From contig CAJFHE010000005.1 in assembly GCA_904378095.1 (NCBI GenBank), forward strand, positions 9,675-73,674: 64,000 bases of DNA. The letters are read 5' to 3'. How positions within the stretch are numbered: position 1 is the stretch's first letter; every line of letters begins with the position of its first letter. Made by a program: the position numbers and the translations under genes. The DNA is from an uncultured Clostridia bacterium. Its GTDB lineage: Bacteria > Bacillota > Clostridia > TANB77 > CAG-508. The notes under the pieces were generated by a model that was given only the letters and a program-made list of their open reading frames with translations, searched no databases and was not told the origin of the DNA. Of this stretch, positions 7,243-23,122 are shown piece after piece.

Positions 7243-9561
7243 TTAATATCCCAATTTTTTGTATATCTTTTGTTTTATTGTAAGAACTATTACATCTATC
7301 ACAGCAAATACAATAAATATTCCAAATTCTCTTGTGTTTATACTTGTTATTTGTAATATGTTTCTAAACAAAAATACTGCTAAGAAAAATCCCACAAATG
7401 TTGTACTAAATAAAAATACACGTAATTTGTTAAATGGTAAGCACACCTCTAAAACTGCCATTATGCTAACAAATCCAATTAATAGATACATAATTGTTAC
7501 TAATTGAGCTTGTGCAATATTTAAAACTGGTGCCATAAATGTAAGGAACACTATATTAAGCATTATTACAATTGCAAATGGTGCTGCATTTCGTAGTACT
7601 GTATGCAAAAACACACCTCTCACAGGCTTGCTATTTGGCTCAAATGAGATAAATAGTGATGTATATGCCTCAATTACTAAATCTATTAATGTAATTTGTA
7701 TTGGTAAAAATGGGAAAGCTGTATTTGTTAATATACAAAAGACTGTTAATAGCACAGAATATATAGTTTTAATAAAGAATATTCTAGCAACACTTGTAAG
7801 GTTATTAACAACTCTTCTTCCTTCCATTAAAACATCTTTAAGCACGCTAAAGTCTTGGTTTAAAAGTACAATTTGAGATACTTGTTTTGCTGCATCATTA
7901 GCTTCTGGTAAGGTAATACTGCAGTCAGCTTCTCTTAAAGCTATTACGTCATTAACCCCATCGCCTGTCATTGCTACTTGATGTCCCTTTGCTTGTAGTG
8001 CCTTTACAATAATACTCTTTTGATGAGGTAGTACTCTCGCGAAAATACTATATTTATCTACTATATCTACAATATCTGCATCAGAATCTAATGTTGATAA
8101 ATCAATATATGATTCATAATCTTCAAGTCCTGCCCTTTTAGCAATAGTTGATACAGTAACAGGGTTGTCTCCGGATATGATTTTTATATCAACTTCCTGG
8201 GTTTTAAAATATCCAAGCATTTCTTTTGCATTTTTTCTTAGTGGGTCTGCTAAAACAATTGAAGCTACAATAGCTAACTGCGGTAATTCTTCTAATTCTG
8301 GGTCTAGTTCTTCTTTAGTATAAGCAACACATAATGCTCTTTTTCCATCTTTTTGAGCAGCTGCTACACTTTGTGGTAATTCTACTCCAGCTTTAGCTAC
8401 CAATCTTTCTGGTGCCCCAACTATTATACTTCCAACATCTTTCAAAGTGACACTACTCCATTTTCTTTCGGATGAAAATGATATATCACTTATTTTTTCA
8501 TATTTTACCTCTCCTTTAAAGTGATTTTTAAGCGCCATAAAAGTTGCATTGCTATCATCTGTTAACTTCACATATGAATTCATTATATTATCAAAACTGT
8601 CTGGTAAAACGCTTTCATCATATTTTTCAACATCTATCACCTTCATTTTTCCTTCAGTAATAGTACCAGTTTTATCTAAGCATAAAGTATCCACATGTGC
8701 TAAAGTTTCTACACTATATAAATCTTGAACTAGGACTTCTTTTTTAGCAAGTTTAATTACGCCAGACTCAAGAGCAATACTTGTCAATAGCACAAATCCT
8801 TTTGGAAGCATTCCCAAAAGTGCTGCAGCGGTTGCTATAACTGATTGTTGCAACGTTGTCTCTCTAAAAACAAATGCTTGCACAAACAATATAACTCCTG
8901 CTGGGATAATAACGAAGCTTGTAAAGTTTGTAACTTTTTTCATTGAATTTAAGAGCTCAGAATTAACTTTTTTGTGTTTCTTTGTAGCATTTATAATTTG
9001 ATTTGCGAAATTGTCGTCTCCTACTTTCTCTATTTTTGCATAACATTTTCCACTTACAACATAACTACCTGATAAAAGCTTTGCGTCCTTTTCCTTTAAA
9101 ATAGTATCAGATTCACCAGTTAGGAGCGACTCATTTACTTCTATTTCTCCATTTATTACATATGCATCAGATGGAATCTGGTCACCTTGTTCAAGTAAAA
9201 TCACATCATCTATGACAATTTCATTTATATGGACTTCTTCTTGTTTTCCATTTCTTATAACTTTTGTTTTAGCAACTGTTAAAATTGATAATTTCTTTAC
9301 TAGATTTTTTCCATGAATTTCTTGTATTATTCCGATTAATACATTAATAATAATTATTAGAATAAAAACCATATTTGTGTACGCATGTACACATGCTAAT
9401 GCAATTGCAATTATTAAGTTAAATAAGTTAAAAAGTGTACAAACATTATCTCTTACAATTTGCCAATTGGATTTTAGGTTATTTGTATTCGAATTATTTA
9501 CCTTTCCCTCTTCAACTCTCTTTTGTACTTCTTCACTTGTTAATCCTTTTATTTCTTCCAT
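7243..9561 (-). CDS. Cation-transporting P-type ATPase (HAD-IC family, Ca2+/Mg2+-type)
   Basis: 772 aa with a Cation_ATPase_N-like start (LTSEEVQKRVEEGKVN), TGES, DKTGTIT and TGDGVNDV motifs, and about 10 TM segments. Confidence 0.85.
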   Translation of the reverse strand: MEEIKGLTSEEVQKRVEEGKVNNSNTNNLKSNWQIVRDNVCTLFNLFNLIIAIALACVHAYTNMVFILIIIINVLIGIIQEIHGKNLVKKLSILTVAKTKVIRNGKQEEVHINEIVIDDVILLEQGDQIPSDAYVINGEIEVNESLLTGESDTILKEKDAKLLSGSYVVSGKCYAKIEKVGDDNFANQIINATKKHKKVNSELLNSMKKVTNFTSFVIIPAGVILFVQAFVFRETTLQQSVIATAAALLGMLPKGFVLLTSIALESGVIKLAKKEVLVQDLYSVETLAHVDTLCLDKTGTITEGKMKVIDVEKYDESVLPDSFDNIMNSYVKLTDDSNATFMALKNHFKGEVKYEKISDISFSSERKWSSVTLKDVGSIIVGAPERLVAKAGVELPQSVAAAQKDGKRALCVAYTKEELDPELEELPQLAIVASIVLADPLRKNAKEMLGYFKTQEVDIKIISGDNPVTVSTIAKRAGLEDYESYIDLSTLDSDADIVDIVDKYSIFARVLPHQKSIIVKALQAKGHQVAMTGDGVNDVIALREADCSITLPEANDAAKQVSQIVLLNQDFSVLKDVLMEGRRVVNNLTSVARIFFIKTIYSVLLTVFCILTNTAFPFLPIQITLIDLVIEAYTSLFISFEPNSKPVRGVFLHTVLRNAAPFAIVIMLNIVFLTFMAPVLNIAQAQLVTIMYLLIGFVSIMAVLEVCLPFNKLRVFLFSTTFVGFFLAVFLFRNILQITSINTREFGIFIVFAVIDVIVLTIKQKIYKKLGY

Positions 9562-9604
9562 TTTATAGTTTCCTTTCTTAATTTTCTACAAAGCTGCTTT
9601 TCCT

Positions 9605-9633
9605 ATTATACAATTAACCTTGCCTTTTGACAA
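9605..9633 (-). promoter_or_regulatory. SigA-type promoter for the P-type ATPase gene
   Basis: The minus strand reads TTGTCA, a 17-nt spacer, then TATAAT, about 40 nt upstream of the ATG at 9561. Confidence 0.55.
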
Positions 9634-9771
9634 GACATTATTTAAAAATTAATATTTTTTATAAAATATGCTAGACTTTTTTTTGTTTTTTGTGTATGAT
9701 TATATAGTATTAAATAATTTGTGTGTTAGCGAAAGATAAACTTTCGACTTTTGTTGATTGGAGGATTAAAT

Positions 9772-10155
9772 ATGTTAAAATTTTCAAAAAAAGTAAAAAT
9801 TATATTCATTTTATTTATTATATTAATAGGTATCAATACTATAGTTTTGGCAACAGATATAAATATGAACTTGCCATCTGATGATGTTACTACATACGAA
9901 AATGGTACTGGAACAAACAATATTGATGACACTACTTCAACAAATGAGATACAAAATGACAATAGAGATATTACCGATGCAACTGATATGAGTGAGCCAC
10001 AAGATGATGTTGGTGGAACTGCTGCCCCATCAGATGTTAGCAGTATAGCACAAGAAAATATGAGTTTTTCAAATATTTTAAATATTTTATTAATTGCAGT
10101 AGGCGTAATTTTAATATTATTAGCAATTGCAATATTAATTAGATTAAGGTCATAA
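9772..10155 (+). CDS. Hypothetical exported protein with a C-terminal membrane anchor
   Basis: The ATG at 9772 follows GGAGGA. It has a signal-like N-terminus (MLKFSKKVKIIFILFILIGINTIVLA), an acidic/Thr-rich middle and a C-terminal TM helix. Confidence 0.5.
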   Translation: MLKFSKKVKIIFILFIILIGINTIVLATDINMNLPSDDVTTYENGTGTNNIDDTTSTNEIQNDNRDITDATDMSEPQDDVGGTAAPSDVSSIAQENMSFSNILNILLIAVGVILILLAIAILIRLRS

Positions 10156-10176
10156 TAAAAAATCTAGAACTTACCG

Positions 10177-10220
10177 AAACATGGTAACAGATTAAAATTT
10201 GTTACCATGTTTTATTTTTT
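10177..10220 (+). terminator. Intrinsic terminator
   Basis: AAACATGGTAAC-12 nt loop-GTTACCATGTTT followed by a T run. Confidence 0.75.
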
Positions 10221-10309
10221 TGTATATTTTATTTTAAAAAAGCAATAATATAAATAGAGATATTCTTTTAAATGCTCAAAACATAATTTCATATATAAGG
10301 AGGTCTAAA

Positions 10310-12503: not shown

Positions 12504-12542
12504 AAATCTTGTTTTTTTCCTCCGTCCCCAAAAACAAGATTT
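12504..12542 (-). terminator. Terminator hairpin of the PhoH2 gene; its 5' module is repeated at 24561-24594
   Basis: AAATCTTGTTTTT-ttcctccgtcccc-AAAAACAAGATTT: a 13-bp perfect stem, with U-rich sequence following on the minus strand. Confidence 0.7.
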
Positions 12543-12635
12543 AGAAAAGCGAGAAACAGGTTTTATCTGCTCCTCGCTCAATGGTTTTAGTAAGGGATGA
12601 ATAATATCCTATCCCTCAATCTCTTAACACTTTGC

Positions 12636-13970
12636 TTACAAAATCTTACTTGCTATTGTACTAAGCTCACTCCTAACAGACTCACTGTTTTTCAGAGAAA
12701 TTTGCCAGCACTGTGGAATCCCCTTCATCTTTTCCGAAAGATAAACCAAACCGTTATATCTTTCGTTTAACTTTGGATTATCCACCTGTGTTGGGTCTCC
12801 TAAGAAAATAAACTTAGAGCCTTCTGCGTGTCTGGTGACAATTGACTTAATGTCACCTGGGTCAATATTCTGCGTTTCATCTATGATGAACAAAGAATTC
12901 ACAATCGTACGACCTCTCAAGAATCCAATTGGTTGGACTTCAATCAGACCCTTTTCAAAATAGTATTCTCCATTCTCATAACTAGGTTTTTTGCTTTTAC
13001 CGTTAATAAGAATAGAAAGATTGTCTTTAATTCCTCCAAGATATGGAGAAATTTTATCTTTCATATCTCCAGGCAAAAAGCCTAGTCTCTCATTACCAAC
13101 AGTTTCAGATGGAGTTGCGACAAGGATTCTAGAATATGTCTCCTCCTCGACTCCTTGCAAAGCTGCTGCCAATGAGCAGAATGTTTTGCCTGTACCAGCG
13201 CCTCCTTTAACAATTACCAGTGGTGCTTTTGTCCAATCCATAAGCAAACATTCCATAAGCATTCTTTGACCAGCATTCTTGGCTTTCACTCCGTACGGAA
13301 AGTTTTTATCCCAAAAAACCAGCGGAACAATTTTCTCTCCATCATACCTGCCAAGTGCAGTTTGAGTAGAATCTACAGCACTAATTTCAGTAAACATATT
13401 GTGTATCCAAGTAATTTCAGAATCTTTAATTACATCTGAAATTGCAAGATATTTTTGCTCAAAGAAATCGTTTATAGCTTTCGCTGTAGTTTCAATGTGA
13501 ACACGCCCACTGTATTGCTCTGGTGCAGTCGGAAAAAGGTCATCTCTGAAATCTTCAGCATTAATGCCCAAAGCACGTGCTTTTATTCTTATTGCACTGT
13601 TCTTGGACACGAGAATAATTTTTTGGCTTTTATTCTCTTGCTGCAAGCCAACACAAACTTGAAAGATTCGCCTATCAGTATCATTGATTCCCTCAATATT
13701 TATTGGGATATCATAATGGTTTGTAGCTATTTTCAAGATACTACCATTTGCCTGCTTTACACCTTCCTTCATAAGTTTTGCAATGTCAAAAGTTTCAATA
13801 TAGCTTAAGATACTATCAGCGACCTTCTTTTTCTCTGGCTTACCCCTGTAGCTTTGCAGCTCATCAATAACAGCCAAAGGAATAACCACCTCATTATCAG
13901 AGCCAAACCGCATAGTGCTGTCGGCAGAAGAAAGAAGTGAATTAATCCTTAGTACAAAGATTTTCCGCAT
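12636..13970 (-). CDS. PIN-PhoH fusion ATPase (PhoH2/YlaK architecture)
   Basis: 444 aa with an N-terminal PIN-like region (..VVIPLAVIDELQ.., ..TDRRIF..) and a C-terminal PhoH ATPase carrying Walker A GGAGTGKTF and Walker B IIDETQN. Confidence 0.8.
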   Translation of the reverse strand: MRKIFVLRINSLLSSADSTMRFGSDNEVVIPLAVIDELQSYRGKPEKKKVADSILSYIETFDIAKLMKEGVKQANGSILKIATNHYDIPINIEGINDTDRRIFQVCVGLQQENKSQKIILVSKNSAIRIKARALGINAEDFRDDLFPTAPEQYSGRVHIETTAKAINDFFEQKYLAISDVIKDSEITWIHNMFTEISAVDSTQTALGRYDGEKIVPLVFWDKNFPYGVKAKNAGQRMLMECLLMDWTKAPLVIVKGGAGTGKTFCSLAAALQGVEEETYSRILVATPSETVGNERLGFLPGDMKDKISPYLGGIKDNLSILINGKSKKPSYENGEYYFEKGLIEVQPIGFLRGRTIVNSLFIIDETQNIDPGDIKSIVTRHAEGSKFIFLGDPTQVDNPKLNERYNGLVYLSEKMKGIPQCWQISLKNSESVRSELSTIASKIL

Positions 13971-14147
13971 AATTTATGCTCCTTCCATGCTAAGAAAAAT
14001 TAGAGTTTTTACTAGAGTACTTACTCCAGCTAAAATATGGAAAAACTCTACTAATAGTATACACCAAATTACGAGTATATGCAAGAATTATTAAATACAA
14101 TTTATAGCAAAACTTCGGAGAGCAAAAGTCTCTTATGGGCTAAAAGA

Positions 14148-14172
14148 AGACCTGCTATATCCTAGCAGGTCT
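14148..14172 (-). terminator. Intrinsic terminator of the 136-aa ORF
   Basis: AGACCTGCTA-tatcc-TAGCAGGTCT, with CTTCTTTT following on the minus strand. Confidence 0.65.
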
Positions 14173-14179
14173 AAGGGAT

Positions 14180-14590
14180 TTAAACTTCTGGACCAGTTCT
14201 TAAATCAATCCGGTACTTAATTGGTTCAAACTTTATTCCACATTCTGTTAATATTCTCCCTTCACCATTTTTTAGCCTCCGAACAATAGTCGTTTGCCCC
14301 TTTTTGTTGGCATAGTGAACATCCTTCAGAATTGAAGCTTTCACGTAATGAATATTACGGAAAGTCCTCGTATGAATGAGGTAGAACCACGGTTCTTTTT
14401 CGAAACCTAGCCTTTCAAGTTCTCTTAACTGTTGAGTCGAAGAAATTTTCCAGTAAACATACTTCTCTCCCCTCTTTTTTCTTTCCAAGAGATTGTACCT
14501 CATTTTCTTCGCACTCAAGGCTTGGCCTTTCACAACTAAAACCCCTTTCAAATTAAATTTGGTAGAACCTATACTTTTATTATACACCAT
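14180..14590 (-). CDS. Hypothetical basic protein, family not recognised
   Basis: ORF of up to 136 aa. An internal GTG preceded by AAAGGGG, or the ATG at MRYNLL, may be the real start. I recognise no motif. Confidence 0.4.
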   Translation of the reverse strand: MVYNKSIGSTKFNLKGVLVVKGQALSAKKMRYNLLERKKRGEKYVYWKISSTQQLRELERLGFEKEPWFYLIHTRTFRNIHYVKASILKDVHYANKKGQTTIVRRLKNGEGRILTECGIKFEPIKYRIDLRTGPEV

Positions 14591-14616
14591 CTTACGCTAA
14601 TATACAATAATATTTC

Positions 14617-14784
14617 TTATTTATTTGCATTTCTATAGCTACTACACATAGATTCGTCTGATTGCTTTGTATTACATCCTATAATAGGTGTCACTATTAT
14701 TTGCTCCAATTTGCATTCTTGGCATCCTTCATCATTATATTTACAGCTGGTTACTGTACAATTTATTTTTTGATTTTTCTCCAT
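14617..14784 (-). CDS. DUF1540-type small Cys-rich protein (55 aa, absent from the ORF track)
   Basis: Hand translation: MEKNQKINCTVTSCKYNDEGCQECKLEQIIVTPIIGCNTKQSDESMCSSYRNANK*. RBS AGGAGG lies 8 nt upstream. The Cys spacing is typical of DUF1540. Confidence 0.7.
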   Translation of the reverse strand: MEKNQKINCTVTSCKYNDEGCQECKLEQIIVTPIIGCNTKQSDESMCSSYRNANK

Positions 14785-14923
14785 AAAAAATAGCCTCCTT
14801 TTTTACTTTTAATAGTATTAGTATGGCTATTTTATTTAATTTTATGAAATTTTTTGAAATTTTATTTTATGTGATTTTTACATTTTATTTATTAAATTTT
14901 ACTGCTACTATATGTTCTATAAC

Positions 14924-15625
14924 TCACTCAATTCTTTTCATATTTTCGTTTTCAATACAATTGCAGTTCTCAGGCTGTTTAAATCCTAAATACCAACTCA
15001 TGCCATTTCTATTTTGCCTTATTTCATTTTCTCTATTCATGAGCCCATCAAATGTCGTTGGAGCTGGCATTATTATAGGCTCACATGGTACCCAATTTGC
15101 TGGCATTGCTGCATTATTTGAATCAGCTATTTGCAAAGCTTGTAAACTTCTCAATATTTCGGGAATGCATCTTCCCACATTCATTGGATAAATTAAAATT
15201 AATCTTATTATTCCTTTATCGTCAATAATATATACATTTCTTACTGTTTCTGTGTTGCTCACATCATTTGATATCATACCGTACTTTCTCGCTATCTCTC
15301 CATTTCTGTCAGCTATGATCGGAAAAGGTACTCTTATACCTGTTTTACAAAAAATGTCATAAAGCCAAGCTAAATGCGAAGCATTCGAATCCACACTTAG
15401 TCCAATTAAGCATGTATTCATTCTTTCAAAGTATGTATTTGCCCTAGCAAACGAAATTATCTCTGTGGTACATACTGGGGTGAAATCGCCTGGGTGAGAA
15501 AAAAGTACTACCCATTTTCCTTTATAATCATTTAATGATATATTTCCCATTGTTGTTGTTGCTTCAAATTCTGGCGCCCTCTGCCCTATTCTAACGTTTC
15601 CATTCATCATTATTTCGTAATCCAT
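14924..15625 (-). CDS. Peroxiredoxin (Prx6/1-Cys-like AhpC/TSA family)
   Basis: 233 aa with the active-site context [20 protein letters not shown] and the C-terminal extension typical of this subfamily. Confidence 0.88.
   Translation of the reverse strand: MDYEIMMNGNVRIGQRAPEFEATTTMGNISLNDYKGKWVVLFSHPGDFTPVCTTEIISFARANTYFERMNTCLIGLSVDSNASHLAWLYDIFCKTGIRVPFPIIADRNGEIARKYGMISNDVSNTETVRNVYIIDDKGIIRLILIYPMNVGRCIPEILRSLQALQIADSNNAAMPANWVPCEPIIMPAPTTFDGLMNRENEIRQNRNGMSWYLGFKQPENCNCIENENMKRIE
15471..15554. repeat. Left copy of an 84-nt direct repeat, inside intact prx (codons about 25-52)
   Basis: 78/84 identical, ungapped and in the same orientation as 19988-20071 (hand alignment). Confidence 0.85.
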
Positions 15626-16077
15626 AAAATATAACTCCTTTCAAACCTAGTCAGTTCATAAATCTTCATTTTGTTTATATATTTTATGAATCATTTGTAT
15701 ATAAGGTTACTATGTTCGCATACATTGTCTGATAATTCCACTTGTTTTGTAACAATTTTATTTATTAAGAACTTCGGGATAATTCTCTTTGCTAGTTACA
15801 AATATACCTAACCTACATTGCATTATTCTTGGCCCCCTTCATAACATTTCTAATAAATGTTATTCATAATAGAGGTTGTCTTAGACATCTCTATTATGAA
15901 AGGTCCAAGTTGTTATGAAATTTTCTCATTTTCTGGGAAAATAGTTATATTTTTTAAAAAAGTAGAAAAAATCCAATTTTAATTTCTATTAGTAATAAAT
16001 ATGTTTTCTAATAATAGTGTTGATGTTTCATTACATACTACATTTTCTATCAAATTTGTATGATATTTATAATAATT

Positions 16078-16127
16078 AAAAATAAACCTAAAATATTTGA
16101 AAAATTAAATATTTTAGGTTTATTTTT
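16078..16127 (-). terminator. Strong intrinsic terminator closing the RhuM operon
   Basis: AAAAATAAACCTAAAATATTT-gaaaaatt-AAATATTTTAGGTTTATTTTT: a perfect 21-bp stem with a U run. Confidence 0.8.
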
Positions 16128-16162
16128 TATATTCACGTTAACATAAAATTGTAATTTATCGC

Positions 16163-17176
16163 TCAGATGTTATTTAAGTTTTTTGTTTCTTTTACTAACT
16201 CATCAAAGTCTGAAATGTAATTTTTATCTTGTATAACTCTATACTTTTTATATTCATCTAAAGCCAATTTATCTGCTATTTCTCTCTTTATTTTTCCGTT
16301 ATCCTTTAAAATATTATATTCATTAATTTTCAAGAATACTTCTAATTTTTCTTTCCATTCTTGCATTGAAATAATCTTACCTAGTTTTACTTGTCTTTCT
16401 GCATAGTCAAGATACATAGATACTAAATTATTTAATTCTGTAATTTCTTCTTGTGAAAGATAGTTTTTGGCTATTGTTACATCTGTTTCAAGTATTTTTC
16501 CATCTGGTGCATTTTTCCAAGTTGTTAATCCCATTTTTTCCTTTTTACTACTGGCTCTATTATAAATTATTTCAGGCGCTGTCATGCCAGTAATAGCAAA
16601 ATGCAACTTATTTTGAACATTTTTATAAAATTCTTGTGTCGTTTCACTATTTTTATCATAATCAAAACTACATTCTTTGTATATATCAGTTATCTTTTGA
16701 TAAAATCTTCTTTCACTTGCTCTAATTTCTTTTATTTTAACTAATAATTCATCAAAATAATCTTTTCCAAATTTAGGTCCATTTTTTAACATTTCACTAT
16801 TAACGACAAAGCCTTTTTTTATATATTCTTTTAAAGTTTTTGTAGCCCAAATTCTAAAATCTGTTGCTTCTTTTGAATTTACTCTATAACCAACTGCTAT
16901 AATTACATCTAAATTGTAAAAATTTGTCTTATATTTTTTTCCATCTGAAGCAGTTACTCTAATTTTTTGAGTAACTGAATCTTGCTCTAATTCTCTTGTT
17001 TTAAATATATTTTGTAAATGATATGTTATATTATTTTCTGCCACATTAAATAATTTTGACATTGATTTTTGAGTTAGCCAAAAGTCTTCTTCATTATATA
17101 AAACTTCAATAGATATATTTTCGTTATTTTGACTTTGGTATATAATTAAATCTTTTAAATTTTCTATATTGTTCAA
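16163..17176 (-). CDS. RhuM-family protein
   Basis: 337 aa. The N-terminus (LIIYQSQNNENISIEVLYNEEDFWLTQKSMSKLF...KYKTNFYNLDVIIAVGYRVNSKEATDFRIWATKTLKEYIKKGF) matches the RhuM pattern. It uses a TTG start with RBS GAGGTG inside the upstream gene's end. Confidence 0.8.
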   Translation of the reverse strand: MNNIENLKDLIIYQSQNNENISIEVLYNEEDFWLTQKSMSKLFNVAENNITYHLQNIFKTRELEQDSVTQKIRVTASDGKKYKTNFYNLDVIIAVGYRVNSKEATDFRIWATKTLKEYIKKGFVVNSEMLKNGPKFGKDYFDELLVKIKEIRASERRFYQKITDIYKECSFDYDKNSETTQEFYKNVQNKLHFAITGMTAPEIIYNRASSKKEKMGLTTWKNAPDGKILETDVTIAKNYLSQEEITELNNLVSMYLDYAERQVKLGKIISMQEWKEKLEVFLKINEYNILKDNGKIKREIADKLALDEYKKYRVIQDKNYISDFDELVKETKNLNNI

Positions 17177-17178
17177 TA

Positions 17179-17841
17179 TTAGTCACCTCTTTTTTTATTT
17201 GTTTCTATTATAAATTTAATATCTTCTATTGCTTTTTCTATATTCATCATTCCATTTCCAATAGGATAGTAAACTGGATACACTTTATATTCTTTTCCTG
17301 CAATTATTTTAAGAAAATTTTGTTTTCTGCATTGTGATACAGAAATATTTTGATTTAATACAATAGAACTAACTTGATTTCCTAATGTTATAATGATTTT
17401 AGGATCAATTATTTCTATCTCTTTGCATAATAAATCTAAATATTCACTATAAACAGAATTTGGTAATACTCTTGCATCTACTTGTGTACACTTTCCTAAA
17501 TTAGTTATGAAATACTTATGTTTTTCTACATTTTCATATACTAAATCTGCGAATTTTTCATCCCATTCTTGAGCTTTCTTCGCCATAATATTCTCATATA
17601 TTTCCTCATCAAGTAATCCTATTCTATAAAATAATTTCCATATATTTTTAGTTCCTATCCATGGAGACCTTCTTCCTCTCCAATTAGGCAATGATGCGAT
17701 ATTTCTACCTGTTGGATTCATAAAAACAAAACAAATATCTGGATTATTAATACATCCACCATTATATATAGATGTTAATTCTTTTGCTCCATATTTTATT
17801 TGTAATTTATCATATTCAACTTTTAAATCTTCTAATTGCAT
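17179..17841 (-). CDS. Uracil-DNA glycosylase superfamily protein (family-4-like layout, divergent motif A)
   Basis: 220 aa with FVFMNPTGR where family 4 has GEAPG, ITNLGKC where family 4 has TNxxKCRP, and ..IIITLGNQV.. downstream. Confidence 0.6.
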   Translation of the reverse strand: MQLEDLKVEYDKLQIKYGAKELTSIYNGGCINNPDICFVFMNPTGRNIASLPNWRGRRSPWIGTKNIWKLFYRIGLLDEEIYENIMAKKAQEWDEKFADLVYENVEKHKYFITNLGKCTQVDARVLPNSVYSEYLDLLCKEIEIIDPKIIITLGNQVSSIVLNQNISVSQCRKQNFLKIIAGKEYKVYPVYYPIGNGMMNIEKAIEDIKFIIETNKKRGD

Positions 17842-17853
17842 AATTTATTGCTC

Positions 17854-18453
17854 CTACTTACTACAATTATTTACTATAAAATCAATAACATCATCTTCTT
17901 TATAGTTCTTTGTATTTCTATTCCTGTCTTCTTCTGTTAAATCGACAAAATATTTATTACATTCTGGCATAATTGACATTGAGTCCAATGGATAACCAGT
18001 ATTTCTTTTTTCACATGGTTTGTCAACAAAATAGAAATGGCTTTTACTCCAACTATATTCTTTTGGTTCTTTTCCATCATATATTACCATTCCATATACC
18101 CATTTAGCTGTTAGCTTTCCACCATATTCTTTAACTAAATTTGAATAATACTTAATCATTTCATCATCATTTAACTCTTTTCCATTTACTCTTCTTACAT
18201 GAGTTCCTGGTTGCTTTTCAAAATCTTTTATATATAAAGCTGTATCTCCTGCTATTGTTGGTATTTTTGCTATCTTATAGCATGCTTGTGCTTTTATCAT
18301 AGCATTTTCTGTAACTGTTTTTCCATTTTCATTTACTTTAATGTTAATATTCAACTCATTTGGCGATATTATTTCAATGTCCATTCCTTCTAATCTTTTT
18401 TTCATTGATTCTATTTTGTATTTATTTCCAGTTGCATACAATAGTTTTTTCAT
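17854..18453 (-). CDS. Ham1/ITPase-family non-canonical purine NTP pyrophosphatase-like protein
   Basis: 199 aa with LLYATGNKYKIESM.., ENGKTVTENAMIKA and IAGDTALYI, which match the RdgB/Ham1 motif order. Confidence 0.65.
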   Translation of the reverse strand: MKKLLYATGNKYKIESMKKRLEGMDIEIISPNELNINIKVNENGKTVTENAMIKAQACYKIAKIPTIAGDTALYIKDFEKQPGTHVRRVNGKELNDDEMIKYYSNLVKEYGGKLTAKWVYGMVIYDGKEPKEYSWSKSHFYFVDKPCEKRNTGYPLDSMSIMPECNKYFVDLTEEDRNRNTKNYKEDDVIDFIVNNCSK

Positions 18454-18473
18454 AAACTTACCTCCTAAATATA

Positions 18474-19511
18474 TTATATACTATAATATATTTCTCCTTG
18501 ATTTTTGAAATTTAAAATTTCTTTTTTTATTTCATCATCTAATTCTGCAACTCTATAAATATTGTCTCTAATTTTTACCAAAGGATTTATATATCTTTTC
18601 TTTCCTTTAGCCTCTACACTATATTTTCCTTTTATTCTTTCTTTGCTCTTATAAACTTTATCGAAATTTTTAAATTTTTCCCATTGTTCTTTTATTTTTG
18701 CATTTCCTGTTTCATCTAATATTCTAACAATATCTTCTTCTTTTTGTTTCATAAACATCTTAGGCTCTAATATGCCATCATCCACCGCCATTCTTAAAAT
18801 ATCTGATAAAAAATTATTTGTTATAGTAGAAATACCACCACTCATAAATTTGCCATTATCTAAAACAGCCTTTGTCATTTTCTTAGCTAGCTCTATATCT
18901 TGAAAGCACATTTCATCTGATCCGTATTCGTTTTTTGCTATTGATATATCTTTATATATTTTATCTACTTCTTTCCAAGTAAGAATTCCTCTAGCTGTAC
19001 CTGTGTATAAATTATATTCCAATCTATCTGATGATAATTGTGGCATATCATTATCTGCGATTGGATACATTGCATAATCTGATACTTCTTCTACTTTTAT
19101 ATTATACTTTTTTAATATATCATTTATTTCTTTTGATTCTCTTATAATCTCTTCTGTAGCATTCTCTGTGCTTGTCTGTGTCTCTGCATCATTATTATAA
19201 TAATCAATCACATGTGAAAAAGTAGGAGTAGCTATGTCATGTAATAGCCCAGCTATAGATTGTTTTATATCGTTGGTAAAATTCCATACAATTAACCCTA
19301 CACCAACCGAATGTTCAAATCTTGAATAATTGTATTCGAATGTCTGTAATTTATTTGATATATAGTCTCTACCGCAGTTCTGTCCAACATATTTTAACCT
19401 TTTCATCTCTTTTGTCTGAATAATTTCATTCATAAAATCTGGCATACTCTGTGAGTATATGCTATGTAATTTTTTTATATTTTCTAAATCTTTTTCCGTT
19501 AACTCTTTCAT
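18474..19511 (-). CDS. HD-domain phosphohydrolase of the SAMHD1/dNTP triphosphohydrolase type
   Basis: 345 aa with SRFEHSVGVG, LLHDIATPTFSHVID and SSDRLEYNLY, resembling the RxEHSxGV / HDIGHxPFSH / DxxDY signature of dNTPase-type HD proteins. Confidence 0.65.
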   Translation of the reverse strand: MKELTEKDLENIKKLHSIYSQSMPDFMNEIIQTKEMKRLKYVGQNCGRDYISNKLQTFEYNYSRFEHSVGVGLIVWNFTNDIKQSIAGLLHDIATPTFSHVIDYYNNDAETQTSTENATEEIIRESKEINDILKKYNIKVEEVSDYAMYPIADNDMPQLSSDRLEYNLYTGTARGILTWKEVDKIYKDISIAKNEYGSDEMCFQDIELAKKMTKAVLDNGKFMSGGISTITNNFLSDILRMAVDDGILEPKMFMKQKEEDIVRILDETGNAKIKEQWEKFKNFDKVYKSKERIKGKYSVEAKGKKRYINPLVKIRDNIYRVAELDDEIKKEILNFKNQGEIYYSI

Positions 19512-19514
19512 TTC

Positions 19515-19739
19515 TTACCTTTCCTTTTCTTCCATATCTATATTTCTTACCTCTAAGCATTTATCTCGAAAAAAAGTAATTCCATTTAATCCTTTATTAT
19601 ATGCTTGCAATATATAATTCTGATTTTCTTGCCCACATAAGCTATCATTATATTTTCTAAAACTACCTCTTTCCCTTGATAAGTTTACAGATTCTACTTT
19701 ACTATAAAAATTAATAAATGTAAATAAATTTTTAGTCAA
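19515..19739 (-). other. 74-codon ORF with no ATG start; possible relic of a class II ribonucleotide reductase C-terminus
   Basis: It opens with TTG and has no convincing RBS. Its stop lies 3 nt before the HD start. The segment ILQAYNKGLNGITFFRDKC resembles the AWKxGxKGITVYRDGS region of NrdJ-type RNRs. The resemblance is weak and judged by eye. Confidence 0.25.
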
Positions 19740-19881
19740 TTCTCTTGTTGCTATGGAATCATATTGTTATTATAAATTTTATTATTTATTATATCTTTAA
19801 CATTTTTGTTAATAGGTATAATTTTTCTTAATGCTATTTCTTTTAAATTCTGTTTATATATTATTTCGACTTTCACATATA

Positions 19882-19931
19882 CGTTTGAAATCAAATCAGC
19901 GTGCAAAGGCACGCTTAATTGATTTCAAACG
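19882..19931. repeat. 50-bp near-perfect palindrome (23-nt arms, 4-nt loop)
   Basis: CGTTTGAAATCAAATCAGCGTGC-aaag-GCACGCTTAATTGATTTCAAACG pairs at 21 of 23 positions. Neither strand has a U run. Confidence 0.8.
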
Positions 19932-19987
19932 TAGTCTCAACAATGACAAATGGCAATTATCTTTCAGCCTTCCCCAAATTGTAAGCT

Positions 19988-20071
19988 CATACGGGGGTAA
20001 AATCTCCTGGGTGAGAGAAAAGTACTACCCATTTTCCTTTATAATCATTTAAACATATATTTCCCATTGTT
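19988..20071 (-). pseudogene. Peroxiredoxin gene fragment (right copy of the 84-nt direct repeat)
   Basis: It translates as [26 protein letters not shown] followed by TGA where intact prx has the catalytic Cys codon. Similarity to prx ends at both edges. Confidence 0.85.
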
Positions 20072-20208
20072 AAGGTTACTTATAATCCAGTAATTTTCAG
20101 ATTTCTATTTTTTTATTGAATGTATTTTTATACCATTTATTAAGTTGTTTTCTGTTATGGAAAATATAAACCTTTTCTTGATCAACTTTGCTTATTTTTT
20201 CTAGGACT

Positions 20209-20814
20209 TCATTTCTTATAACATTCATAGCTTCCATTCATTAAATAATTCTTCCTATACCATCTAGCGAATTGGTCTTTCGCATCTCCCCAGAATGTTG
20301 CTTCTCTTACATAGTCAATTTTTCTTAATTCACTTAAAGTTTTAGTTTCACCATCAGGTATATAAAACCTATCATGCCAACGTCCTCTTGTTCCTCTTGC
20401 TTCATATGCAATTGTTCCAGTTCCTCCACCAGAAAATACAATTGCTTTCTTGCCTGATTCACAGAAAGCAAAACAATGTTCTAATCTCGCTTTTCTATTT
20501 CTTTCGTTTTTAAACAATTCTAGGAATTTTTCTACTCCTATTTGTTTGTCAAAGTAATGATTATATGGTCCTGGCAATCCTCCTAATGCTTCTATGTATA
20601 ATCCACTATCCGATTTTAATACGGCTTTGCCTAATTTATTTGCACCATATTCAGCGCTAAAGGCTGCCACCTCTCCACATGTTTCTGCTTGGATTTCTAG
20701 TATTTCAAAATCAGGATTAACGATTTCTATATTAAAGCCATACTTTTTTCCAAAAAATTCATTAGCCTCATTAACTTTATTGGGATTAGTTGTTAAATAA
20801 ATTAATTTTTCCAT
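20209..20814 (-). CDS. Ham1/ITPase-family NTP pyrophosphatase-like protein (second, divergent paralogue)
   Basis: Start taken at the ATG at 20814 (GGAGAG RBS). Motifs LIYLTTNPNKVNEA.., ..EIQAETCGEVAAFSAEYGA.. and KSDSGLYIEALGGLPGPY are present. Confidence 0.65.
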   Translation of the reverse strand: MEKLIYLTTNPNKVNEANEFFGKKYGFNIEIVNPDFEILEIQAETCGEVAAFSAEYGANKLGKAVLKSDSGLYIEALGGLPGPYNHYFDKQIGVEKFLELFKNERNRKARLEHCFAFCESGKKAIVFSGGGTGTIAYEARGTRGRWHDRFYIPDGETKTLSELRKIDYVREATFWGDAKDQFARWYRKNYLMNGSYECYKK

Positions 20815-20932
20815 TTTATTTCTCTCCATAATAATATGATTTTAAATTTTCTATAATCATTACCTCTCATTGATGAATATAATATCATATCTCCTTAACC
20901 ATATACAAGATTTTATAAAATTTTAAACAATA

Positions 20933-23122
20933 TCAAGTTTTTTCATATTTTCCCAATTCTACTACATTTTGAAGAGGTCTAACAATTTTATCATTGTAGA
21001 GCACATTAAGCTCATGCAAAGGTCTTGTCATAGCCACATACAATAGTTTCATATCAATGTTTCTATCTGAATTATATTCTCCTTCTGTAGCATTAGTTAT
21101 AATAGCTCCATCAAATTCCAATCCTTTGGCAAGGTAACTGGTTATTGTACAAATTCCTCCGCTATATTCCGTATCTGAATTAGTTATATTTTTAATTTCT
21201 ATATTTTCGCTATTAAGCTTATTATTTATTGATGTGGCTTCTTCTTCATTTTTACATATTATAGCAACTGTTTTATATCCATTTTCTTGATATTTATTTA
21301 AAATAGATTTAATTGTGTAAACTTGTTCATCCTCATTTTTATAATTAATATATTTAACAAATTCGCCATGTCTTATTACTGGCTTTGCGGTATTTAGTTT
21401 TATATAATTTATTATATTATTTGCTGAATTCATAATTTCTGTTGTTGTTCTATAACTTTTCAGCAAATATTTCATTTCACATTTTTCTTCAAATGTATTC
21501 TCAATTACCGATTTCCAATCATCTATTCCTCTATATTGATATATAGATTGTGCCAAGTCTCCAAATATGCTAAACGTTGCATTTTTCAAAAGACTTTTTA
21601 AAGCATAAAAGCTAAAGTCACCCAGGTCTTGTGCCTCATCTATTGCTACTTGTCTAAACTGGTCAAATGGCTTTGCTCCGTATATTTTACATTTAAGATA
21701 TATTAGAGCACTTAAATCTTCAAACTCCACGTTTTTTTCTCTTATATTTTTTATATTCTTTTGAACTTTTTCTTCTATTTCATTATAAAACTCAGCATCA
21801 ACGTATTTTTTTATGTTTGTAAGAAATTTTATATAAGCATTCAATATATTTGGGATAAGATTTTTAAAATATTTCTTTATACTCGCCTTGCATCCATTCT
21901 TTACTTCTTTCTCCACAAAGTCGAATTTTTCTAATTCATTTCTATTAAGCTCCTTTGATACTACATTGATTTTGCTATGATACTGCTCTTTAAGTTTTAA
22001 AAATATCGTCTCATAATTGTCTTCAATATATTTTGACAACATTAAAATTGTTCTATCAACTCTCTTTTTAATAGTATCATAAAGATTTGAATCCTCTATA
22101 GAGAAATATATTTTTTCAATAATGTCTTTTGATATTACTTCATATCCTTTTATTTCTATATTTTTATTTGGAATTATATTTTCTTTTATGTCTTGTAAAA
22201 ATTTATCTAATAATTTTTTGAAATTCATAGAGACTTTAAATTTTTCATATTCTAGTGATTTTTCATTTGAAATAGATATAATTAATTTTTTATCTTCATC
22301 AATCATTTTTATATCTTCATTTAAGAATTCGGCACATAGCTCTTCATATGTTAATTGCTTTACATTCTCGACATCTAAGTCTGGTAAAACTCCTGAAATA
22401 TAATTAACGAAAAACTTATTTGGTCCGATAACTAAATACTGATTTGGCTTAATTTTATCACGGTTGTTATACACTAAATATGCTATTCTATGTAGTACAA
22501 CAGTTGTTTTTCCACTTCCTGCAACGCCTTGAATAATAATGTTTTTTGATAATGGCTCTCGTATAATTGAATTTTGTTCTTGTTGAATTGTAGATACAAT
22601 ATTTTTTAATCTATTGTCTGCACTTGCACTTAAATATGGTTTTAGTAAATCATCATTTGAAACAGTATCTACATCTTGAAAGCTTTTAAGCTCACTTTCC
22701 TCAATATCGTATTGTCTTTTTAATAATAATTCTCCTGTGCAAGTTCCCTCCGGTGCTTCATATGATGCTCTTCCAATATTACTATCATAATACATCGAAG
22801 ATATAGGTGCTCTCCAATCTATTGTAATATTATTATTGTCTTCGTCCATTACGCCAACTTTTCCAATATACAGCCTTTCTACACTTTCTTCGCCATCTCT
22901 TGCAAAGTCTAGTCTAGCAAAATAAGGTTTGTTTATGCTTTTTTGCATTAGCCTTAGTTTTTCTCCGTACATTTCAATTACGTTGTTTATCATTACCTCA
23001 TTATTCACGTAGACTTTTGGTGCTACTTCTATCCTTTGTTCGTAATAATGCATAACATCTTTGAATTTTTCTATGACATTATGCAGAGTCTCTTTCTCTT
23101 TTTGAAGCTCAATGTCATTCAT
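20933..23122 (-). CDS. helD: HelD-type UvrD/Rep superfamily-1 helicase (helicase IV-like)
   Basis: 729 aa with Walker A QGVAGSGKTTVVLHRIAYLVY, DEAQD and a C-terminal LYVAMTRPLHEL, in the HelD-like N-terminal arrangement. Confidence 0.8.
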   Translation of the reverse strand: MNDIELQKEKETLHNVIEKFKDVMHYYEQRIEVAPKVYVNNEVMINNVIEMYGEKLRLMQKSINKPYFARLDFARDGEESVERLYIGKVGVMDEDNNNITIDWRAPISSMYYDSNIGRASYEAPEGTCTGELLLKRQYDIEESELKSFQDVDTVSNDDLLKPYLSASADNRLKNIVSTIQQEQNSIIREPLSKNIIIQGVAGSGKTTVVLHRIAYLVYNNRDKIKPNQYLVIGPNKFFVNYISGVLPDLDVENVKQLTYEELCAEFLNEDIKMIDEDKKLIISISNEKSLEYEKFKVSMNFKKLLDKFLQDIKENIIPNKNIEIKGYEVISKDIIEKIYFSIEDSNLYDTIKKRVDRTILMLSKYIEDNYETIFLKLKEQYHSKINVVSKELNRNELEKFDFVEKEVKNGCKASIKKYFKNLIPNILNAYIKFLTNIKKYVDAEFYNEIEEKVQKNIKNIREKNVEFEDLSALIYLKCKIYGAKPFDQFRQVAIDEAQDLGDFSFYALKSLLKNATFSIFGDLAQSIYQYRGIDDWKSVIENTFEEKCEMKYLLKSYRTTTEIMNSANNIINYIKLNTAKPVIRHGEFVKYINYKNEDEQVYTIKSILNKYQENGYKTVAIICKNEEEATSINNKLNSENIEIKNITNSDTEYSGGICTITSYLAKGLEFDGAIITNATEGEYNSDRNIDMKLLYVAMTRPLHELNVLYNDKIVRPLQNVVELGKYEKT

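Follow-up and report, generated by a model that had tools for sequence, protein, structure and literature searches.

How did a fragment of a peroxiredoxin gene come to lie, in the same orientation, about 4.5 kb from the complete copy of that gene? The question is raised by a stretch of 64,000 nt from an uncultured Clostridia bacterium (contig CAJFHE010000005.1, assembly GCA_904378095.1), which we call the window and whose positions are the coordinates given without a contig label. The peroxiredoxin gene, prx, carries one copy of an 84-nt repeat and the second, distal copy lies beyond a group of other genes. Comparison with related loci leads us to conclude that the distal copy is probably the attL scar of an integrative element of about 5.4 kb that targets prx, and that this scar was later trapped beside a rebuilt prx gene. 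The comparison establishes that a family of such elements integrates at a defined core, and that attL, the left end of the element and its right part as far as the recombinase start are kept in the window. The gene and the two sites within it that matter to the argument are these:

14924-15625, minus strand: prx, an intact peroxiredoxin gene encoding 233 aa (AhpC-TSA, 1e-34; NCBIfam peroxiredoxin, 7e-80)
15471-15554, minus strand: proximal repeat copy, inside prx, matching 19988-20071 at 78 of 84 positions
about 15487 to 15473, minus strand: the attB-equivalent sequence GATTTCACCCCAGTA in prx, two codons before the catalytic Cys codon

The prx product combines an AhpC-TSA domain with a 1-Cys C-terminal domain. 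The repeat had been reported in the initial annotation of the window, and alignment confirms it: 15471-15554 and 19988-20071, which lie 4517 bp apart and have one orientation, align without gaps and share 78 of 84 positions. The distal copy translates as had been given there, and the similarity does end where prx has TGT and the distal copy TGA. Within the 64 kb of the window, a 32-nt piece of the repeat is present at just two places, compared to zero occurrences expected from 100 shuffles. When the L034 and L040 alleles are used for the comparison, the homology of the distal copy extends about 9 nt further in the 5' direction and reaches 20080. On the 5' side of the distal copy, neither codons 1-21 of prx nor the prx leader could be recognized with any significance, the alignment scores being those of shuffled sequences. 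The possibility that prx itself is chimeric was approached by comparing the identity of its 5' and 3' parts across species, but in all species the 5' part is the better conserved one and the comparison is uninformative.

The mechanism of mobilisation had been left open, and related loci were to be searched for an empty site. Both points are answered by a set of loci that we designate by L-numbers, all of which are contigs from metagenome assemblies. A scan with the prx protein, using one genome per species, gave 80 loci, all from uncultured gut Clostridia, and the flanks of prx, up to 10 kb per side, were searched for element-derived DNA (blastn, E <= 1e-8). The gene is split in 3 of these 80 species-representative loci, while 67 have no element-derived DNA near prx, and none of the 67 has a prx duplicate. 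The remaining 10 show element-derived matches near an intact prx; some of them, for example the histidine phosphatase matches of L009 and L016, may be unrelated homologues. The empty site was found in L034, where the helicase gene HelD directly adjoins an intact prx. In L078, L079 and L083 the homology to prx starts only at residue 46-47 (DFTPVC...) and is preceded by the 3' end of a large serine recombinase gene. Full-length elements were found by searching with a recombinase fragment, then with the first gene of the element, and looking up the contigs that encode the matches.

The occupied and the empty site can be compared directly in L098 and L034. On the left, L098 5701-8216 corresponds to L034 330-2845 with 98.9% identity, and on the right L098 13606-16100 corresponds to L034 2830-5324 with 99.4% identity, which leaves a 5389-bp insert within prx and a 16-nt overlap, AGATTTCACCCCCGTA, that comprises the codons for DFTPV. 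The gene order in L098 is HelD, a 5' piece of prx (61 aa), the element, a 3' piece of prx (173 aa), DUF4143, DUF1540, beta-CASP and FBA. The element itself encodes an HTH_36 protein (146 aa), a 94-aa open reading frame (ORF), a histidine phosphatase, an 80-aa ORF with ParE, a NUDIX protein, a 71-aa ORF without a Pfam match, and then, directly beside attR, a large serine recombinase of 541 aa. The 80-aa ORF and ParE are predicted to be a ParE toxin-antitoxin pair. The recombinase (L098 11964-13589) matches PF00239 (Resolvase, 3.5e-24), PF07508 (Recombinase, 2.1e-21) and PF13408 (Zn_ribbon_recom, 2.1e-10), has the N-terminal motif GYCRLSRDED, and its stop codon lies 16 nt from the att core. The copy of the element in L097 is 100% identical to that of L098 and is also in prx, although the L097 chromosome is only 86.6% identical downstream and has different genes upstream. 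Four nucleotides between the core and the following P' arm differ between the two loci (TGAG at about L097 9738-9741, AAGT at L098 8217-8220), and the scar in the window has TGAG.

The insertion divides prx into pieces of about 50 and 180 codons. When both junctions were examined in L089, L097 and L098, no prx sequence was found within the element, and to the left of the core at attR of L078, L079, L089, L097 and L098 there is the 3' end of the recombinase gene and a P arm, again with no prx sequence. The P arm at attR of L089 and L090, CCTCCCCACATTGTAAG, is an inverted repeat of the P' arm, CTTACAATTTGGGGAAGG. Reconstruction of attP from L098 gives a site that is symmetric at 17 of 26 positions about the CC of the Pro codon, the best centre lying between CACC and CCCG. 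For a large serine integrase, an attP of about 50 bp is expected, with imperfect inverted-repeat arms about a central dinucleotide and a short identity with attB, and the reconstructed site agrees with this. The reconstructed sites are AAAAATTAATATAACTATCCCCACATTTAAAGATTTCACCCCCGTAAAGTCTTACAATTTGGGGAAGGTTGAAAGATAAT for attP and CAAATGGGTAGTACTTTTCTCTCACCCAGGAGATTTCACCCCCGTATGTACAACAGAAATGATATCATTTGCAAGGGCAA for attB. This layout of P, core and P' is, as judged from the reconstruction, the anatomy of a large-serine-integrase attachment site, and the predicted point of crossover, the CC of the Pro codon, is two codons ahead of the catalytic Cys. We therefore identify the element of the relatives, on sequence grounds, as a gene-splitting large-serine-recombinase integrative element that is inserted by recombination of attP with attB.

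Not all copies of the element have an intact recombinase gene. In L089, and also in L090 and L091, the recombinase gene (L089 8994-10573) has suffered two 1-nt insertions around the zinc-ribbon CGDC motif and is split into ORFs of 322 and 190 aa. A frameshift at a slippery poly-A tract was considered and rejected, since the alignment shows two separate 1-nt insertions and hence a pseudogene. A search for homologues of the recombinase returned about 60 separate protein clusters of 189-192 aa, all of them the C-terminal piece, which suggests that many copies are pseudogenes or truncated relics. Homologues of the HTH_36 first gene form 562 clusters at E <= 1e-5 (for example P0215), one of which is on at least 1000 contigs. 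The element genes in the relatives are non-phage. This gene content, and the absence of a match in the phage collections or in IMG/VR, led us to reject a phage or prophage identity: a megablast search of 14000-21500 against plasmid and phage collections gave no match, and neither did scans of IMG/VR with the attL, attR and attP junction patterns.

With the element at hand, the distal copy of the window can be read as its left end:

19988-20080, minus strand: prx 5' relic (codons about 22-52), the putative B arm of attL plus the core; the distal 84-mer and about 9 nt
20005 to 19990, minus strand: att core AGATTTTACCCCCGTA, 16 nt
19968-19985, minus strand: P' arm CTTACAATTTGGGGAAGG, 18 of 18 positions, at the same offset from the core as in attL of L089 and L090
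19880-19933, strand not assigned: palindrome of 25 + 25 nt at the left end of the element, -32 kcal/mol, z = -8.1
19762-19886, minus strand: remnant of the HTH_36 gene, about codons 66-123 of the 146-aa protein, with the first two thirds deleted

The window reads GATTTTACCCCCGTATGAG and then directly CTTACAATTTGGGGAAGG. The similarity between the two repeat copies stops at the Cys codon because the att core ends there, and the TGAG between core and P' arm resembles prx by chance. The scar is 95% identical over 102 nt to attL of L096, 89% identical over 189 nt to that of L097 and L100, and 87-89% identical over 188-189 nt to those of L098 and L097. The palindrome occurs at the same place after attL in L093, L094, L095, L097 and L098, and it is kept in L093-L095 even though the prx products there have only 55-64% protein identity to that of the window. 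It is possibly an operator or an origin-like site for the adjacent HTH_36 protein. The HTH_36 remnant matches L098 8677-8766 (87%) and 8791-8849 (92%) by blastn and residues 69-93 with 80% identity by tblastn; an intact HTH_36 gene is present in L093, L096, L097 and L098. The succession of prx codons, core, P' arm, palindrome and first-gene remnant identifies the distal copy as an attL junction and not a random duplicate. The initial annotation had seen in the repeat the footprint of DNA that integrated into the 5' part of prx, and this is borne out: the distal copy corresponds to attL, and DNA of the mobile element is present at both ends of what lies between the repeats.

The other end of the segment is built differently:

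15710-16157, minus strand: right-hand part of the element, with the region downstream of the NUDIX gene, a hairpin and a remnant of the 71-aa gene (p71)
16075-16130, strand not assigned: terminator-like hairpin, z = -6.6, also present in L098
15626-15709, minus strand: native prx leader, 84 nt, aligning with the HelD-prx leader of the element-free L034 and that of L098

Positions 16157-15814 are 90% identical over 346 nt to L098 11429-11768, and 15810-15710 are 91% identical over 101 nt to L098 11883-11979; the stretch of L098 so matched runs from the end of the NUDIX gene through the 71-aa ORF to the first bases of the recombinase gene. Remnants of p71 within 15710-16157 were detected by tblastn. 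At about 15709/15710 the element remnant is joined to the leader, and the complete prx follows. Of what had been described as a 540-bp upstream region of prx, 15710-16157 is thus the right part of the element. The palindrome and the strong terminator hairpin, which had also been pointed out, are real, with fold energies far better than those of shuffled sequences. The same fusion is present in L008 and L013, where recombinase codons 1-16 (MTVVGYCRLSRDEDK) are kept before the leader; the fusion in the window is about 75 nt shorter. We take the junction of element and leader to be a secondary, illegitimate one. As had been stated for integrases, tblastn of the whole window with the L083 fragment and with the 541-aa protein of L098 gave no significant match to the serine recombinase of the relatives, and no P arm was found in the window at up to 3 mismatches, leaving it without a recognizable attR. 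The segment lacks the recombinase gene and is therefore a relic, not a functional member of the family. Matches to Rfam in 14500-21000 are at chance level, and a promoter scan gave no more sites than in shuffled sequence.

A history that would produce this arrangement can be proposed. The element would first have integrated in prx of the lineage of the window. An illegitimate exchange would then have placed the native leader of an uninterrupted prx copy behind the very start of the recombinase gene; that copy could have been supplied most simply by a sister chromosome after excision, or else by incoming DNA with a homologous crossover downstream. The product would consist of a 5' piece of prx, attL, the element without most of its recombinase gene and without attR, the leader and an intact prx, so that the gene would work again while excision of the element would be lost. 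Deletions may then have taken codons 1-21 from the prx scar, two thirds of HTH_36 and what was left of the recombinase gene. Finally, the interior would have been exchanged for a ribonucleotide reductase remnant and the HD, Ham1, UDG-like and RhuM genes, partly by recent transfer from another species, to give the present 4.5-kb segment between two diverged copies of the prx 5' end.

The last of these steps concerns the interior and the left flank, which have the following features:

20933-23122, minus strand: HelD-like helicase, left flank; adjoins prx directly in L034 and L098
20209-20829, minus strand: Ham1a, left flank; its L096 homologue (91% aa) lies directly before the prx 5' piece and attL
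19515-19764, minus strand: two fused internal pieces of ribonucleotide reductase (including a "74-aa ORF"), start of the cargo
18474-19511, minus strand: HD-domain gene, 345 aa (Pfam HD)
17854-18453, minus strand: Ham1/ITPase-like gene, 199 aa (Pfam Ham1p_like), with a mosaic breakpoint at about 18173 relative to L001 and L008
17179-17841, minus strand: UDG-superfamily gene (Pfam), specific to the window variant
16163-17176, minus strand: RhuM-family gene (Pfam), candidate defence family PDC-S05 of PADLOC, 9e-140

The two reductase pieces correspond to L008 581-722 (window 19764-19623) and to L008 from 1177 onward (window from 19630 onward), and both fall in a 426-aa Ribonuc_red_lgC ORF of L008. 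The whole block of 19764-18173, made up of these pieces, HD and the beginning of Ham1, has 94-96% identity to L008 (96.4% in DNA for 19630-18173), but prx itself is only 79% identical between the two loci, which points to a recent interspecies exchange of the block. In L008 the same ribonucleotide reductase, HD and Ham1 genes come first in a series of nucleotide-metabolism genes that lies upstream of prx, with no adjacent scar. The 3' part of Ham1 and the UDG-like and RhuM genes are found in the window variant only, and the HD, Ham1 and UDG-like genes match none of the PADLOC models. The 3.6-kb middle that contains the HD, Ham1, UDG-like and RhuM genes has no counterpart in the canonical element, and we interpret it as secondary cargo. 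That the interior from HD to RhuM was carried by the element itself was rejected, as it is absent from canonical elements and partly shared with the chromosomal context of L008.

The interior also varies within the species. A look-up of the exact prx protein gave conspecific contigs in two arrangements, both of which have the distal prx fragment. L002, L004 and L006 are of the window type. The other arrangement, variant B (L001, L003, L005 and L007), has between HelD and prx kinase-like AAA genes, HD, Ham1, MazG, a methyltransferase, a 104-aa tyrosine-integrase fragment, radical SAM and NUDIX, such that the MazG-to-NUDIX genes stand in the place of the UDG-like and RhuM genes of the window. 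The breakpoints between the variants lie at about 20207-20217, beside the segment, at 18173 and 16173, inside it, and, across prx, at 14571 and 12506. None is at the repeats, and the idea that the 4.5 kb moves as a single cassette has to be abandoned. Some further differences were seen. Ham1a of variant B has a 200-bp internal deletion (window 20496-20695), and just upstream of the scar variant B has a 1.4-kb insertion with AAA_33 and AAA_28 kinase-like genes (L001 1378-3059; also L092). Across prx there is a second variable slot, 12507-14570 (compare L001 11056-12581), in which the window has a 136-aa ORF and a PIN-PhoH ATPase after DUF1540 and variant B has instead a gene with the beta-CASP metallo-beta-lactamase fold. 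The cargo of both variants, like that of the intact element, consists mostly of nucleotide "house-cleaning" enzymes (Ham1, NUDIX, MazG, HD and UDG).

The window is not the only place where pieces of the element lie beside an intact prx; independent relics were found in other species in L030, L053, L068 and L021. In L030 (9994-10525) a 160-bp repeat (prx -6..+153), 99.4% identical and 372 bp apart, lies upstream of the full gene, and its 212-bp insert is the P'-side left end of the element, with an 81-nt near-perfect palindrome (-46 kcal/mol, z = -11.9). Here attL and 212 nt of left end stand directly before position -6 of the full prx, which suggests that the same kind of gene rescue happened independently. 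In L053 a 353-bp direct repeat that is 100% identical (480-832 and 9900-10252; prx -100..+252) surrounds a 9-kb island; its left copy extends past the att core and therefore is not an attL. This island has MNT/HEPN-like genes, membrane proteins and DNA methyltransferases, with a C-terminal recombinase remnant at its end (9331-9612). L096 has, at about 8290-8345, a chromosomal attP-like junction of P, core and P' after a truncated recombinase gene and a DUF4143 ATPase gene, and about 700 nt further on (9009-9890) Ham1, with 91% aa identity to Ham1a, followed by the prx 5' piece, attL and HTH_36. These junctions look like nested or tandem relics. A DUF4143/AAA_14 ATPase gene also lies between the recombinase gene and the prx 3' piece in L083 and L088 (3323-4627), where it is flanked by a 41-nt repeat of recombinase-end/P-arm sequence (L083 770-809 and 2315-2355), and the same gene is downstream of prx in L034 (3639-4946) and L098. 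It may be a separate insertion module.

Other explanations of the repeat have to be weighed against this history. We regard as quite improbable the one closest to the initial annotation, that a site-specific element brings its own promoter and prx codons 1-52 and so regenerates the gene it enters, which would make the window a near-original state that lacks an integrase. It would account for the direct repeats that bracket the segment, for the element DNA at both segment ends and for the fact that the differences in the copy are also found in prx 5' sequences of L030, L096 and L097, as would be expected of a foreign functional copy. What speaks against it is that the elements of L089, L097 and L098, as well as L078, L079, L083 and L088, for which only attR is available, split prx and contribute no prx sequence. 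Serine integrases require arms that are inverted repeats, which is what P and P' are in these elements; were the P arm prx-like, the site would be an attL, and a large serine integrase alone does not recombine attL with attB. The 5' end in the window, moreover, has the native leader, which matches that of the element-free L034 and which follows a truncated recombinase start in L008 and L013, and the claim of a replacement end supplied by the element is not supported.

A Campbell-type event, in which a circular DNA that included part of the prx 5' end (an element after imprecise excision, for instance) entered prx by a RecA-dependent single crossover and left the flanking direct repeats, seems to us quite improbable as well. 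Duplications of the prx 5' end that have other limits, L053 at -100..+252 (100% identical) and L068 at -71..+12, do look driven by homology. The distal copy of the window, on the other hand, ends exactly at the att core and runs into a P' arm as a true attL does, and a crossover with an internal segment (+72..+155) would give two truncated genes and not a scar and a complete gene. The right junction is also not one of homology, being a recombinase start joined to a leader. Finally, a local duplication of the prx 5' end by slippage or as a decaying tandem, with no mobile element and with an interior of fixed-synteny genes, could appeal to the HD and Ham1 genes upstream of prx in the nucleotide-metabolism run of L008, but can be practically dismissed given that element-specific sequence directly adjoins both repeat copies, that empty and occupied sites exist, that the interior varies within the species and that the 67 of 80 loci without element DNA show no prx duplicate.

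The history of a trapped attL scar beside a rebuilt prx has weaknesses of its own. For the recombination that is proposed to have restored the gene, a sister chromosome and transforming DNA are indistinguishable as the source. The scar begins at codon about 22 with no trace of a leader, and an extra deletion is therefore needed. A further point is that the scar resembles the resident prx (92.9%) more than it does the alleles of L008 or L034 (88-89%), yet L008 and L013 have the same fusion junction, so that either a horizontal spread of the relic or gene conversion has to be assumed. "Cargo replacement" is an interpretation, since nothing in the canonical element corresponds to the 3.6-kb middle of the segment. 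The left repeat of L053 passes the att core, which means that prx 5' ends in this group are also duplicated by at least one further process. Additionally, all the comparison sequences are metagenome assemblies and the role of the recombinase is predicted.

A broader reading may be put forward tentatively, and we think it rather unlikely as a whole. It holds jointly that prx of the relatives is a conditionally split gene, reassembled when the recombinase excises the element, perhaps in response to oxidative stress or in one type of cell; that the lineage of the window has hard-wired prx in the "on" state through the fusion of recombinase start and leader; and that the surviving ends of the element now serve as homology anchors by which nucleotide-pool and defence-type cargo could be swapped into a slot free of recombinase. 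The anchors would be the P' arm, the palindrome and the HTH_36 stub on the left, and the region downstream of NUDIX and the p71 stub on the right.

With the trapped-scar history, a puzzling repeat of a gene fragment gains a concrete origin. The insertion hits the most conserved codons of a peroxiredoxin, an enzyme of oxidative stress in anaerobes, and the family could be a new case of a gene switched by the excision of an element. The predicted new recombinase, with a defined 16-nt core and attP and attB sites that can be reconstructed, is a candidate for genome engineering. The relic would show that a split gene can be regained without precise excision and that a dead element can then become a slot for gene turnover; the window itself holds a scar and not a working system.

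Gene-intervening elements excised by large serine recombinases are known from Firmicutes: SPbeta with SprA in spsM, skin with SpoIVCA in sigK of B. subtilis and C. difficile, and gin with GirC in gerE (PMC4191935, PMC5499854, PMC5025042, PMC5595907). The element of the relatives shares with them the splitting of a protein-coding gene, a recombinase gene at one end, a short core, the inverted-repeat arms of attP and a small ORF just upstream of the recombinase gene, where a directionality factor could be encoded; like gin it is small (5.4 kb) and without phage genes. It differs in its target, the active-site codons of a peroxiredoxin and not a sporulation gene, and in its hosts, which are uncultured gut Clostridia. 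Regulated excision would be a prediction for the element of the relatives, and the window has a recombinase-less relic beside a rebuilt gene, with which no switching is possible. Our literature search found no report of a serine recombinase element that targets a peroxiredoxin gene, and the family that splits prx is apparently undescribed, though it belongs to a known kind of gene-splitting serine-recombinase element.

XisF of the fdxN element of Anabaena and the Ccr proteins of SCCmec are likewise chromosomal-island recombinases of the large serine type, and restoration of a split gene is a feature of XisF too. Among NCBIfam models the 541-aa recombinase matches XisF (1e-26, 94 bits against a cut-off of 375) and CcrC (2e-26, 93 bits against 900) best, but these scores are far under the family cut-offs and it is therefore an orthologue of neither. 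Phage 21 and e14 in icd and the islands in tRNA genes use tyrosine integrases, and the replacement gene end is part of their attP. They resemble the window in that the gene is intact at the near junction and repeated in part at the far one, but the intact elements of the relatives have no prx segment, and the intact prx of the window comes from a secondary fusion. The nearest parallels in outcome may be prophage and island scars, or "grounded" cryptic elements, and the homology-facilitated illegitimate recombination described in S. pneumoniae and Acinetobacter. With these the window shares the survival of one att site, the loss of the integrase, the turnover of cargo, and one illegitimate junction with homology on the other side. 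It differs in that the target gene was rebuilt beside the retained scar, an outcome of which we know no description for this class of element and which is seen here in at least three species (those of the window, L008 and L013).

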